Positions 24,880 through 27,911 of a stretch of DNA of 64,000 bases are shown here, piece after piece. The notes beneath the pieces were generated by a model. It was not told where the DNA came from and did not search any database. It was given only the letters and a program-made list of their open reading frames with translations. This stretch comes from Marinicella sp. (GTDB lineage: Bacteria; Pseudomonadota; Gammaproteobacteria; Xanthomonadales; Marinicellaceae). Positions within the stretch are counted from its first letter, which is position 1, and every line of letters starts with the position of its first letter. Location of the stretch: the NCBI GenBank assembly GCA_965230295.1, contig OZ246001.1, positions 1 to 64,000 of the forward strand, given 5' to 3'. Made by a program: the position numbers and the translations under genes.

Positions 24880-25051
24880 ATTAAATCTCAGTACCAACTA
24901 AAAGCGCGTATTTTAGCTGTTTTGGCTCAAAATAAAAAGGTATCAAATTCCGCACTTCAAAAAAAAAGGATTTTTGAGTAAAAAAAATCTGGATTTGCCC
25001 ATTATTTTAGGATAAAGTACGCAGCCTCATTTGCTGATGAGCAACCCTTGC

Positions 25052-25142
25052 GGAGAGATGGCAGAGCGGTTGAATGCACTGGTCTTGAAAACCAGCATAC
25101 GTTAATAGCGTATCTAGGGTTCGAATCCCTATCTCTCCGCCA
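25052..25142 (+). tRNA. tRNA-Ser(TGA)
   Basis: GGAGAGATGGCAGAGCGGTTGAATGCACTGGTCTTGAAAACCAGCATACGTTAATAGCGTATCTAGGGTTCGAATCCCTATCTCTCCGCCA; long variable arm. Confidence 0.97.
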
Positions 25143-25206
25143 TTATTTGTATGTCATTCATGGCATAGAAATAATGAAAGATAGATCGATTCTAGAAGCC
25201 TCCCTC

Positions 25207-25305
25207 GGGTTCGAAAAAATTGTCAGGAACGATTTTTGACGCCGCAGGCGCCCACAGGGTGAAATGCAGGATGCATTTCATCAATCCCTATCTCTCCGCC
25301 ATTAT
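25207..25305 (+). pseudogene. Duplicated tRNA-Ser 3' end interrupted in the T-loop
   Basis: GGGTTCGAA-[67 bp]-AATCCCTATCTCTCCGCCATTAT; flanks identical to the real tRNA 3' end. Confidence 0.85.
25216..25282 (+). repeat. 67-bp four-hairpin element, copy 1
   Basis: AAAATTGT-CAGGA-ACGATTTTT / GACGCCGCAGGCG / CCCACAGGG / TGAAATGCAGGATGCATTTCA-TC. Confidence 0.85.
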
Positions 25306-25371
25306 CCTACTTATAATTCTTCAACTGGCACCAAAGAATGTCATGACTGTGTCATGAGCGGTTGAATGCAC

Positions 25372-25440
25372 GCCCTACTCTGTGTTTTAGCCAAGTCTTC
25401 TTTGGCTCACGCCAAAATCGACTTAACACAACACAGGGGC
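25372..25440. repeat. ~69-bp long-hairpin element (type A), copy 1
   Basis: GCCC..TGTGTT..AAGTC-TTC-TTTGGC-TCAC-GCCAAA-ATC-GACTT-AACACA..GGGC, inserted between the D-arm and anticodon stem. Confidence 0.75.
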
Positions 25441-25450
25441 TGGTCTTGAA

Positions 25451-25517
25451 AAATTTGTCTGGAACAAGTTTTAACGCCGAAGGCGCCCGTAGGGTTAAAG
25501 GCAGGAAGCCTTTGATT
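25451..25517 (+). repeat. 67-bp four-hairpin element, copy 2 (in the anticodon loop)
   Basis: AAATTTGT-CTGGA-ACAAGTTTT / AACGCCGAAGGCG / CCCGTAGGG / TTAAAGGCAGGAAGCCTTTGA-TT. Confidence 0.85.
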
Positions 25518-25555
25518 AAAACCAGCATACATTAATAGCGTATCTAGGGTTCGAA

Positions 25556-25622
25556 AAATTCTTCTGGAAAGAGTTTTGACGCCGCAGGCGTCCACAGGGG
25601 CAATGACAGGAAGTCATTGATC
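25556..25622 (+). repeat. 67-bp four-hairpin element, copy 3 (in the T-loop)
   Basis: AAATTCTT-CTGGA-AAGAGTTTT / GACGCCGCAGGCG / TCCACAGGG / GCAATGACAGGAAGTCATTGA-TC. Confidence 0.85.
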
Positions 25623-25746
25623 GTTCCAACAACTGTTCTAAATTACGACTGAATTTGTCTTGTTCGTTTTTTTCTGATTTACTTTTTTCATTGCTTGCTC
25701 ATATTTTTTGAAGTTTACAATGAGCCTAAACCTTTCCTTCTCTTAG

Positions 25747-25872
25747 CAAATCAGTCTAATTGGTCCACATGGTGCTGACAGGGTACATTTGAAAATTATT
25801 AAATTTTCAGACTTTATTAGGGATCCTGATAGTAATCTAATTGAGCTATCTAATTACAAACAAACAAAATGA
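25747..25872 (+). pseudogene. C-terminal remnant of a VOC/glyoxalase-family gene
   Basis: Frame reads ...FIRDPDSNLIELSNYKQTK*, matching the VOC C-terminal (Y/F)xRDPDGNLIEL motif; in-frame TAG at 25744 upstream. Confidence 0.55.
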
Positions 25873-26095
25873 CTCTCGAAGTGATGCCAGATAACTTTGT
25901 AATGGGTTTCCTGGCATCCTTTATTACCAATTTCTCACCAACTTCAACCGAAAGCTTTTGCCCTATTTATTGATTGGTTCAATTATAAGCGGCCATCAAT
26001 TCAGTTAAATTCATGACCTTTGACACAAGTTATTATTTATAATTAATTATATTCTTCATCCTGAAGTAATGCGCGAATTCCAAATTTTTTAGGTT

Positions 26096-26374
26096 ATGGT
26101 CACAAAGAAATCGACGACTCTTTTATGTTTAGTGATATTTTTCTACACTGGATTGCATGAGAAGAATAATCTGATAACTCAGGATATATCGAGTCATGAT
26201 AACTCCTACTCCATAAGCCTTGATCTTGACAGCGATGATTCGGACATTTGCCAGTTTGATGTAAAAGCTCAATCTACATTTGACAATAGTTGCAACCAAT
26301 TTCAAACATGGGTTCCCAGCCACAAACATGACTTCGGCTTCTTCACGCCGATGCGAGCCCCTCCTGTTGCATAG
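26096..26374 (+). CDS. Putative RAPP-type translation-arrest leader peptide
   Basis: N-terminal basic plus hydrophobic export-like segment, acidic middle with scattered His/Cys, ends MRAPPVA*. Confidence 0.65.
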   Translation: MVTKKSTTLLCLVIFFYTGLHEKNNLITQDISSHDNSYSISLDLDSDDSDICQFDVKAQSTFDNSCNQFQTWVPSHKHDFGFFTPMRAPPVA

Positions 26375-26432
26375 GCAACACACTTAAACAAAGTTTCACT
26401 TTTACTAAACATAACTTTTTGAGGAGGTTTTC

Positions 26433-26774
26433 ATGATCGTTTCTTCATGTTTCAACCATGTGAATAAGGAATTCATTCCTGAGCACTTTATTCTTATAGC
26501 CTGTAATTATTTTAAAAAATTATACCATTTAATAAATTCAATAAATGGCCGCTTCGGTCAAGTCACATCTGAATGTCATGGCTCTGATTGCACCAGTTGT
26601 CACTTGTCAATCAGATGTCCTCAAAAACGACACATTGATATTTATCAGTTAACTCCAGACTGTATGACAGCCTTAATAAACCCTTTAGAAAAAGCAGCAA
26701 CGCTTTTGTCCAAATTGGCATTGAAAACAAGTACCAGGTATCGAAGTTTTCAATCAGGAGAAATTGGACAATGA
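26433..26774 (+). CDS. Small Cys/His-rich hypothetical protein (Cx4Cx2Cx5C motif)
   Basis: Perfect RBS GAGGAGG 5 nt before ATG; CHGSDCTSCHLSIRC. Confidence 0.6.
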   Translation: MIVSSCFNHVNKEFIPEHFILIACNYFKKLYHLINSINGRFGQVTSECHGSDCTSCHLSIRCPQKRHIDIYQLTPDCMTALINPLEKAATLLSKLALKTSTRYRSFQSGEIGQ

Positions 26775-26983
26775 AAAAAGAAATGAATGAAATTAATCAA
26801 TTATTGCTGCTATTTGTCATTTTAATTTTTTTGTTTTTAGCTGCTGTCTCATACAGTTTGTACCAGACAACTGTGGAATTAAATCAACTCAAAACAAGAG
26901 TAAAACTCAATGAACCACAAATCAAAATTGTTAGCAAACCCACTTTATCTAGCCAACCATTACATTTACAAAATAATAAATAA
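26771..26983 (+). CDS. Small single-TM hypothetical protein
   Basis: ATGA overlap with the previous stop, AGGAG RBS, hydrophobic LLLLFVILIFLFLAAV followed by a short helical segment. Confidence 0.6.
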   Translation: MKKEMNEINQLLLLFVILIFLFLAAVSYSLYQTTVELNQLKTRVKLNEPQIKIVSKPTLSSQPLHLQNNK

Positions 26984-27041
26984 TTCAAGCTTTAGCCATC
27001 TTCAAATTTATCCAAAGACTTGAATTCGATAGGAGAATAGT

Positions 27042-27332
27042 ATGCTCGATCAACTACACACATTTACAGTACCAAACGCCTTTGTCGTATTTCTATTTAT
27101 TTTACTTTTCACGGCCCATGTATGCCTTTTCGTAGATATTTCCAGGTTCCAGAAAAACCCTTCAAGCAGGTTGAATTTTGTAATCTCTGGTTTTTTATCA
27201 GCATTCATTACAACATATTCCTTTTATTCAATAAGGTTGCCTTCAATCACACAAAAGTTATTCCTGATAGGTGCAATAGGGGTTATTTCAGCAACAGCAT
27301 TTACATTGACACTACAAAAATTATTTAAATAA
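27042..27332 (+). CDS. Small three-TM hypothetical membrane protein
   Basis: AGGAG RBS; three hydrophobic stretches. Confidence 0.6.
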   Translation: MLDQLHTFTVPNAFVVFLFILLFTAHVCLFVDISRFQKNPSSRLNFVISGFLSAFITTYSFYSIRLPSITQKLFLIGAIGVISATAFTLTLQKLFK

Positions 27333-27570
27333 GACATTACAGAGCTAAAGTATTTAGGGCGAGTCGAAAAAAGTCACAAAGGGGAGTTAATAATAGATGA
27401 TTACAGGTGCCTTAAGTGGCTGTCTTCGCCCTTATATGGATATGGCCAAACCTTAAAATCATAATTGCCCTTATCGAACTGACTGAATGAAAGTAATTAG
27501 TCAAACAATCCACCACCCATTTGAGGCAACCATTACTTTCTCCATATAGATTGGAAAAACATATTTGAGC

Positions 27571-27640
27571 GGATCGGGCAGAAACGTAGTCAAGGCTTCT
27601 TTGGCCACACCAAAATCGCCATGACGCTTATTCTCGATCC
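27571..27640. repeat. ~70-bp long-hairpin element (type A), copy 2
   Basis: GGATCG..CAAGGC-TTC-TTTGG-CCACA-CCAAA-ATC-GCCATGAC..CGATCC shares its core with 25372-25440. Confidence 0.65.
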
Positions 27641-27911
27641 CGAACTGGTGATGAGTGTCGGTTAATTCTTAAACTAAATCAAAATCACTTATGGCGGTTT
27701 TAATGCTACTTATCCCTTTAAATGAACTCTGCTGCTGTGTCATAACCTTCAAATAAGTCTGTCAGAATCAACTGAACTGTAAGATTTTGGCTCATTTATT
27801 AATATCGTCATTAAATCTTTATGTTTTATTCACCCTCCCCTTATATAAAGCCTATAAACCAGGCATCTCATGATGCTAAAATAGCTGCTTTTTTGCTGAT
27901 GGAACATTGCT

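Follow-up and report, generated by a model that had tools for sequence, protein, structure and literature searches.

This study concerns a 69-nucleotide (nt) element that splits serine tRNA sequences in a genome of Marinicella sp., a genus placed by the NCBI taxonomy in the Marinicellaceae, Lysobacterales, Gammaproteobacteria. In the window, which is the whole stretch of DNA analysed and comprises the first 64 kb of a genome assembled into a single contig of 4.008 Mb, an intact tRNA-Ser(UGA) gene is followed by incomplete copies of the same tRNA, whose loops are interrupted three times by the same unit of four small hairpins. This unit belongs to a family of miniature insertion elements that is both real and widespread in Gammaproteobacteria and that apparently has not been described before. 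We regard it as very probable that the units have reached their sites by insertion, and we see about even chances that they are non-autonomous mobile DNA elements of the kind represented by repetitive extragenic palindromes (REPs) and the IS200/IS605 family, which would move by HUH-type single-strand transposition.

The interrupted tRNA-Ser array

The intact tRNA-Ser(UGA) gene (25052–25142, plus strand), which was detected by ARAGORN and matches the tRNA model of Rfam with 60 bits, provides the uninterrupted reference for the array, with GGGTTCGAATCCC as T-loop and CTTGAAA as anticodon loop. All other parts of the array are located downstream on the same strand. Of the tRNA, the first pseudo-copy retains only the T-arm and 3' end, and it is split in its T-loop by element copy 1. 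Its left flank is formed by the 5' half of the T-arm (CGGGTTCGA, 25206–25214), which is followed by the element with its four hairpins (25215–25283; 89.9 bits and E 2e-17 in a search with the covariance model R1, which was built from five copies of this genome) and by the 3' half of the T-arm with the acceptor 3' strand and CCA (25284–25301), the latter as part of a 23-nt repeat (25283–25305) that is identical to 25124–25146 of the intact gene and its trailer. The second pseudo-copy starts in the D-loop and is interrupted in both its anticodon loop and its T-loop. It contains a piece of D-loop and D-stem (25356–25371, 16/16 identical to the gene), a 68-nt insert unrelated to the element at the junction between D-arm and anticodon stem (25372–25439), the 5' strand of the anticodon stem with the loop up to TTGA (25440–25449), copy 2 of the element (25450–25518, 90.9 bits), the rest of the anticodon arm with the variable arm and the 5' half of the T-arm (25519–25554) and finally copy 3 (25555–25623, 86.8 bits), where the tRNA sequence ends, its 3' part being missing. 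A repeat search, which delimited the tRNA pieces, recovered a 91-nt unit three times (at 25197, 25432 and 25537, mutual identity 69–75%) besides tRNA pieces of 38 nt with 97% identity to the gene (25518–25555) and of 23, 16 and 13 nt with 100% identity.

A preliminary description of the sequence had recognized that the removal of four intervals restores near-perfect tRNA-Ser and that three of them are the same element in two T-loops and one anticodon loop. Both observations hold: the pieces left after this excision match the gene at 25/25 (tRNA positions 66–90) and 61/62 (positions 13–74) sites, and the R1 matches and their flanks identify the three copies. The fourth insert, for which 25372–25440 had been given, ends at 25439. 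This insert is single-copy in this genome and thus not a dispersed repeat, and a related sequence is found at the same position of the pseudo-tRNA in other Marinicella species, either up- or downstream of tRNA-Ser(UGA). The local misassembly that had been raised as a concern is contradicted by contigs of a DNA sequencing run, which tile 24900–25900 without difference, a single contig of 2621 nt covering 25278–25900; this run may represent the source sample of the assembly. In a contig of the DNA run (X14), the T-loop of the tRNA is joined straight to an element whose first hairpin differs (25125/25234 joint), a sequence presumably contributed by a related organism of this sample that has a copy of its own.

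Nine copies of the element, all on the plus strand, were detected by R1 in the genome. Those in the window have E-values of 1e-17 to 1e-16. One of the others occupies a T-loop-like site at 74392–74460 and belongs to tRNA-Ser(GGA), three are contained in identical 158-bp tandem units (3115543–3115928) downstream of tRNA-Ser(GCU), and one is located upstream of the same gene in the D-loop of a 5' pseudo-copy (3115241–3115311). The ninth, divergent copy (1984122–1984191) lacks a tRNA flank on its left, and its right flank resembles a T-loop only weakly, by the word ATCTC. The element thus accompanies all three tRNA-Ser genes (UGA, GGA and GCU) of this genome. The copy at 74 kb is set apart from its gene (69044–69134) by a 5.2-kb island (69135–74310; L069:5135–10310, where L with a number denotes loci and G with a number the compared genomes), which sits at the 3' end of tRNA-Ser(GGA). 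It encodes a tyrosine integrase of 405 amino acids (aa), an AlpA-like regulator, a winged-helix protein and an AAA-type ATPase, and it is bounded by a repeat of the acceptor 3' end near 74312, which does not include the T-loop.

Length, fold and covariation of the element

The length of 67 bp assigned previously requires correction, as two surplus A were found at each of the two junctions tested after excision, defining an element of 69 nt (or of 67 nt plus AA). The preliminary description had found copies 1 and 2 consistent with a duplication of AA, though with boundaries made ambiguous by A-runs; such a duplication is excluded because the copy in the D-loop at 3115241 starts with C, limiting any target duplication to at most one A. 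C is likewise the first base of relatives in other families, in which the cut is placed between TTCGA and ATCC.

The element is composed of two long hairpins at its ends and two short ones in its centre. Hairpin 1 has an AT-rich stem of 9 bp with variable sequence and the loop CWGGA, hairpin 2 a GC stem of 4 bp and a GNA triloop, hairpin 3 a stem of 3–4 bp and a loop of GTA, GAA, GCA or ACA, and hairpin 4 a variable stem of 7–8 bp and the loop AGGAW. The similar loops of hairpins 1 and 4 are found in direct orientation and there are no terminal inverted repeats. When folded with DNA parameters, all four hairpins form in five of seven copies including the three in the window, whose stems pair in the way initially proposed; the D-loop copy and one other copy each show one deviating hairpin. 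GNA triloops closed by a C–G pair are unusually stable mini-hairpins in DNA.

The conservation of structure, which had been claimed from three copies, was quantified in 73 R1 matches from 33 loci (68 of them distinct). Standard pairing is found in 95.6% of helix cells, compared to 71.9% in shuffles and 36–56% with slid partners, numbers that derive from an alignment fitted to R1, which somewhat favours pairing and an excess of G·T. Covariation is strong: changes on both sides occur at 20 of the 23 pairs, with 302 compensatory cells and about 65 non-pairs, and on each of the five measures used the observed value exceeded all 500 shuffles. With the same bias of the alignment, G·T (30 cells) exceeds A·C (7 cells), which points to the tRNA-sense strand as the strand that folds.

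Target sites and orientation

Both flanks are halves of a tRNA loop in 37 of the 73 copies. The majority of these (30/73) are found in T-loops that are cut after position 58, with a TTCGA-type flank on the left and an ATCC-type flank on the right. Three copies reside in the anticodon loop of tRNA-Ser(UGA) between CTTGA and AAACC, three in the D-loop of tRNA-Ser(GCU) between GGCTGA and GGCG, and one (L014:1796) is a recombinant that combines an anticodon-loop flank on the left with a T-loop flank on the right. Another 24 copies retain one tRNA half and 12 have none, many of the former being part of six pairs that abut head to tail within one T-loop, where the second insertion would have occurred at the regenerated TCGA^A junction (with ^ marking the cut). 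Insertion is precise, with a target duplication of at most one nucleotide (A). The target YGAA in hairpin loops that had been suggested for the element stands with respect to the word: T-loops are cut at TCGA^A, the anticodon loop at TTGA^A, a D-loop at CTGA^A and a protein gene at ATGA^A, except that one subfamily of a sister lineage targets CAC^A instead of YGA. With respect to the context it requires correction, since hairpin loops are used most often but not exclusively.

An intact tRNA-Ser (UGA, GCU or GGA) was detected by ARAGORN in 19 of the 33 loci, and the Marinicella loci without it are mostly short contigs or, in this genome, separated from the gene by the island. The strand of the element is the same as that of the neighbouring tRNA-Ser in all 37 copies scoring at least 55 bits and in 53/56 copies overall, the three exceptions being a variant of three hairpins, the first of which it has in common with a neighbour. 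In other families of the order, T-loop insertions adjoin tRNA-Glu, tRNA-Arg(ACG) and tRNA-Ser(CGA, GGA and GCU), and at the level of the class tRNA-Arg(ACG) and tRNA-Ser(GGA). The bias towards serine in this genome is in part accounted for by GGTTCGAATCC, which is limited to 6 of the 41 tRNA genes (the three Ser genes, Leu-UAG, Tyr and Arg-ACG). Orientation tracks the tRNA gene and, as far as the few loci of this genome indicate, not the replication fork: with an origin at about 1.70 Mb and a terminus at about 3.84 Mb, replication meets the UGA and GGA loci head-on and runs co-directionally with the GCU locus. Since TTCGAA is palindromic, insertion in the sense direction only would require either a longer target word or the exposure of the non-template strand by transcription.

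Interrupted copies of tRNAs that were examined all lack 5' or 3' parts or are mutated, and an intact gene adjoins wherever the contig extends far enough. In none of these cases was the interrupted gene otherwise intact and needed, as a tRNA intron of the bacterial group I or archaeal bulge-helix-bulge type would demand.

Empty sites and the history of the arrays

Direct evidence for insertion comes from related genomes. Two other Marinicella species (G004 and G024) contain the same downstream pseudo-tRNA-Ser(UGA), including the insert between D-arm and anticodon stem, with uninterrupted anticodon and T-loops, both of which are filled in G000, G014 and G008. These empty and filled sites support the earlier proposal of independent insertion over simple duplication, and they imply that a duplicated pseudo-tRNA can precede insertion into its loops, which underlies the reading of the tRNA-Ser bias as survivorship that is laid out below. 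No copy at all is found in the tRNA-Ser(UGA) loci of G004, G020, G024 and G012.

Empty sites are also found outside tRNA sequences. In G203, one copy of a miniature inverted-repeat transposable element (MITE) carries the element at GATCTTCA^ATCG, and four sister copies of the MITE lack it. In a sister genus and in Marinicella, the element is inserted into genes for a 322-aa HUH protein similar to REP-associated tyrosine transposases (RAYTs), here termed Y1big. One subfamily is found there in antisense orientation at GH(F/L)^WE codons, where the target on the strand of the element reads CCCAC^AAATGACC, and a subfamily with three hairpins at W(F/Y)M^K (TTATGA^AGG), there in sense orientation. 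When the flanks are joined, the reading frame and the conserved peptide are restored, with ...TGHLWESRFKSQALL in L128 and ...TGRLWEGRFKSQALL in L096, as in the uninterrupted gene of this genome; other copies have decayed.

The arrays themselves have been reshaped by crossover between copies, as illustrated by the recombinant at L014:1796 and by the identical tandem units. Upstream pseudo-copies keep the 5' part of the tRNA and have lost its 3' end, and downstream pseudo-copies keep the 3' end, often with a terminator-like hairpin that includes the CCA end. The upstream leader has been duplicated together with the 5' pseudo-copy, which identifies the duplications of pseudo-tRNAs as events at the level of DNA.

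Distribution of the family

The scan for copies elsewhere, to which the preliminary description had tied its proposal, was positive in 42 of 44 genomes of the Marinicellaceae (E ≤0.01), in 65 of 151 genomes sampled from the order (E ≤0.001), which belong to 11 of its 12 families, and in 44 of 151 genomes sampled from the class with about one genome per family (E ≤1e-4). These counts include the genome of this study, and two of the 44 positives at class level (G214 and G316) are unpublished genomes, which enter this count alone. In the sister genus, copies are scattered among housekeeping genes. High counts in G015 (46), G203 (15) and G073 (19) had raised the suspicion of an autonomous element, which was discarded as the module rides inside larger repeats: a MITE of about 335 bp with inverted ends in G015 (L110–L115), another MITE with inverted ends in G203 (L150–L163) and a palindromic repeat of about 700 bp in G073 (L071–L077). 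At L082:905–1398, a locus from a different family of the order, an insert of about 220 bp with perfect inverted ends of 16 nt interrupts hairpin 2 of two copies.

A model for mobility and the evidence weighed against it

The absence of inverted ends, the direct repetition of end hairpins, a target word of three to four nucleotides, a duplication of at most one nucleotide and the strict orientation together make up a signature of Y1 HUH enzymes. Such enzymes, which include those of IS200/IS605 and RAYTs, catalyse single-strand peel-and-paste transposition with these features. From this combination we infer a mechanism in which the element would fold on the tRNA-sense strand, with its long hairpins at the ends and two GNA mini-hairpins in the middle, and in which a Y1 single-strand DNA transposase would excise it and paste it 3' of YGA (or of CAC in the sister lineage), a reaction expected to leave no target duplication and to result in a fixed orientation. 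In its full preferred form, GGTTCGA^ATCC, the target word is almost confined to T-loops. As hits in a working tRNA gene would be lethal and hence lost, survivors would be restricted to dispensable DNA, such as pseudo-tRNAs beside the working gene, transposase genes of mobile elements and MITEs. This survivorship would account for the prevalence of tRNA-Ser, and the arrays would subsequently grow and shrink by unequal crossover between copies of the element or between tRNA pieces.

The window contains no Y1/RAYT-like gene, in line with the absence of a transposase noted at the outset. Elsewhere, the genome encodes a RAYT-like protein of 187 aa (1669261–1669821, at 1.67 Mb) and Y1big, a RAYT-like HUH protein of 322 aa (3.17 Mb) with the motifs HFHIV and YVDLNPIRA; the RAYT model has two matches in this genome, a count that carries no positions. 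The gene for Y1big (3171273–3172238; L117:1771–2739, minus strand) is contained in a unit of about 1.35 kb with inverted ends of 17 nt (TAATCAAGGACAGGCAT). It is present in 38 of the 44 genomes of the family with 1 to 22 matches per genome, and many copies contain one or two in-frame stops despite an identity of about 87%.

Several observations speak against an HUH-driven mobility of the element. In the loci searched with R1 (E ≤0.01), no copy was found at a canonical IS200 TnpA gene (L060), at the RAYT-like gene for 187 aa encoded here (L001), at three Y1 genes of 239 to 252 aa (L062, L063 and L065) or at ten intact Y1big genes. PF01797 is found in 30 of the 44 genomes of the family, and 12 genomes with the element lack it, including G004, G012 and G001, which are 99–100% complete. 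NF047646 is so common (124/151 genomes of the order sample) that it does not discriminate carriers of the element. Y1big and the element diverge between families of the order, with Y1big in 16/17 and the element in 2/17 genomes of f7, and with 17/17 versus 2/17 in f11, 5/17 versus 13/17 in f8 and 3/17 versus 12/17 in f12, although R1 may miss divergent copies. In this test of the association with HUH/RAYT-type transposases that had been proposed, neither the RAYT-like genes nor Y1big co-occur convincingly with the element. Of four loci in one genome, two lie on each template strand, a small sample that gives no hint of the lagging-strand bias expected of IS200/IS605 derivatives. Copies at different sites of this genome differ by about 20–30% and only those in tandem are identical, and recent jumps in this genome are therefore not demonstrated. 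Moreover, copies in the same loop of the same pseudo-tRNA of three species keep their hairpins by compensatory change, an upkeep at a fixed site that could reflect a function for the host rather than mobility, and the excess of G·T that assigns the folded strand derives from an alignment fitted to the model.

Two apparent links to a mobilizing enzyme were considered and rejected. The only copies near a Y1 gene are located about 0.8 to 1 kb from two RAYT-like genes of 228 aa (L066 and L068) in one genus, where they lie on different sides and on one side each, which does not conform to the flanking pattern of a RAYT. Y1big had been suggested as mover by the presence of copies at two fixed sites inside its gene, a proposal that fails in the co-occurrence across the order. 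In the simpler reading, Y1big is a safe landing place, being a multi-copy selfish gene.

Other explanations of the data

Among the alternatives, it appears unlikely, but less so than the others, that the element is mobile DNA moved by other means, such as reverse transcription of an RNA, a site-specific recombinase acting on the symmetry of loop and stem, or template switching during replication or repair. The lack of an HUH gene that co-varies with the element and of a replication-strand bias would fit such a process, as would the choice of T-loops and anticodon loops, which reportedly are the classic crossover sites of tyrosine integrases (Williams 2002). The missing terminal inverted repeats and a target duplication not exceeding one nucleotide do not fit, and a double-stranded circle of 69 bp would be too small for the chemistry of a recombinase. 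An RNA intermediate is further at odds with the leader that was duplicated together with the 5' parts of pseudo-tRNAs.

We consider it still less likely that the element is mainly a functional RNA module that is co-transcribed with tRNA-Ser and released by tRNA processing at the flanking T-arm and acceptor pieces, its mobility being old. Precedents exist in the RtT RNA of the tyrT operon of Escherichia coli and in small RNAs derived from 3' external transcribed spacers. The sense orientation of all strong copies beside tRNA-Ser, the prevalence of G·T over A·C on the sense strand, the compensatory changes in same-site copies of three species and the presence at all three tRNA-Ser genes, even if one copy is now 5.2 kb away behind an integrase island, would all be expected of such a module. 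These properties have to be set against copies that are antisense in protein genes, inside MITEs or among housekeeping genes of the sister genus, against the lack of a match to RtT or any other Rfam family, against a number of G·U cells that is exceeded by that of non-pairs, and against arrays that vary strongly among species and are devoid of the element at four tRNA-Ser(UGA) loci. Public RNA runs are uninformative on transcription, as none contained more than 8% of the sampled words and none is from this organism; contigs from RNA or possibly RNA runs match the tRNA gene and, as single contigs, 25343–25376 and 25739–25787, but not the element copies.

That the arrays are attachment-site scars of lost genomic islands at tRNA-Ser genes, with the hairpin unit as island remnant, is highly improbable. 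A genuine integrase island exists at tRNA-Ser(GGA), but its repeat covers the acceptor 3' end and not the T-loop, copies also occur in anticodon loops, D-loops, upstream pseudo-tRNAs with complete 5' parts and protein genes, the structure-conserved unit is present in 42 of 44 genomes of the family, and the copies of the element are not island ends. An assembly artefact or chance similarity is practically negligible in view of the tiled region, of nine copies in the genome with E-values down to 1e-17 and of hundreds of places in other genomes.

Relationship to known elements

The supposition that the family may have been seen before finds no support. Rfam contains no family matching the element, neither in the whole window at gathering scores nor in 24950–25750 at E-values up to 10, and a match to sX4 with 49 bits, which is below its cut-off of 70, is caused by the tRNA-Ser sequence. 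No hairpin element described as inserting into tRNA loops was found in the full-text literature, a coverage largely without subscription journals and supplements, and the accessible parts of PMC3590771 and PMC3733652 do not describe such an element.

The proposed HUH-mediated mobility relates the element most closely to two groups. In IS608 and ISDra2, the Y1 HUH transposase TnpA promotes peel-and-paste single-strand transposition, with PATE-type MITEs as gene-less derivatives. With both groups of elements, the autonomous and the gene-less, the 69-nt unit shares the lack of terminal inverted repeats, direct end hairpins, a recognition word of 3–4 nt, the absence of target duplication and a fixed orientation. 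In contrast, it is only 69 nt long, contains two additional GNA mini-hairpins and is cut on its left at the foot of hairpin 1; a related autonomous element was not found among the searched Y1 loci, which include L060, and no lagging-strand bias is apparent in the four loci compared. REPs, together with the bacterial interspersed mosaic elements (BIMEs) and REPINs that they form, are likewise short, structure-conserved and gene-less hairpin repeats in mosaics, associated with RAYTs (TnpA-REP; PMC3116915 and PMC8266576), and RAYT-like genes are also encoded in this genome. Unlike a REP, which is a single hairpin or an inverted pair (an imperfect palindrome of 20–40 nt), the element contains four hairpins in 69 nt. 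It lacks the conserved GTAG/CGTC tag, with GTAG being merely one of several loops of hairpin 3, and its copy number is low (nine in this genome), with copies not grouped around a rayT gene. According to the accessible parts of PMC3733652, REPs sit inside coding genes at recurring sites, and a tRNA loop is not among the REP features listed in these parts.

A second resemblance concerns tRNA-linked repeats of the tyrT type. As in these, units follow a tRNA gene, terminate in a repetition of its 3' end and are amplified in tandem. Yet there is no match to RF00391, the RtT RNA of E. coli with its 178-bp tyrT repeats, either at gathering score or at E-values up to 10, and the units here are pseudo-tRNAs split by an element that is also found at a distance from tRNA genes. 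The small dispersed repeats of Nostoc, reportedly described by Elhai and colleagues in 2008, and the double-hairpin elements of fungal mitochondria are similarly tiny hairpin units inserted precisely and without duplication into structured or repeated DNA. Their sequences, sizes and taxa differ from those of the element, and we note the likeness without a claim of homology.

The movement of REP-like mini-elements is poorly understood, and a tiny element with filled and empty sites, a defined word and orientation and a wealth of compensatory changes opens the mechanism to direct tests with oligonucleotides and two candidate enzymes. The element also accounts for a recurring puzzle of annotation, in which functional tRNA-Ser genes are accompanied by arrays of tRNA-Ser fragments, and it presents T-loops, anticodon loops and D-loops as targets for more than integrases and introns. 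If it is as wide-spread as the class sample suggests, an entry in Rfam or a repeat library would be merited. It is tempting to extend the proposal to a general, unrecognized class of single-stranded DNA mini-elements, for which the 7-nt loops of tRNA arms, laid open on the non-template strand by heavy transcription of tRNA genes, would serve as homing sites. Such elements would be moved in trans by domesticated HUH enzymes of the host, would create as by-product the pseudo-tRNA arrays beside tRNA-Ser genes of many phyla and would in some cases have been recruited as conserved 3' modules of tRNA operons; we regard this generalization as tentative and, on balance, doubtful.

Additional features of the locus

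The spacer between the intact gene and the first pseudo-copy (25143–25205, plus strand) contains a hairpin whose pairing involves the CCA end and the trailer, followed by a conserved AGAAGCC box in front of the next T-arm half, a layout that recurs at other loci. The box GGTTGAGAAGCC or a near variant (25180–25205 in the window) is located 3–6 nt 5' of many downstream T-arm halves. It is present at each of the three tRNA-Ser loci and also in a further family of the order (L003, L006, L082 and others), and it may be the remnant of an anticodon arm or D-arm.

Beyond copy 3, the 2.3 kb (approximately) on the 3' side of the array (25624–27900) contain nothing but short open frames, which overlap and reach at most 113 aa. 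Within this region, 25656–25793 is a low-copy dispersed repeat with four additional partial copies of 74–81% identity at 2079793, 2686802, 3704977 and 3835655 and with matches in other Marinicella genomes.

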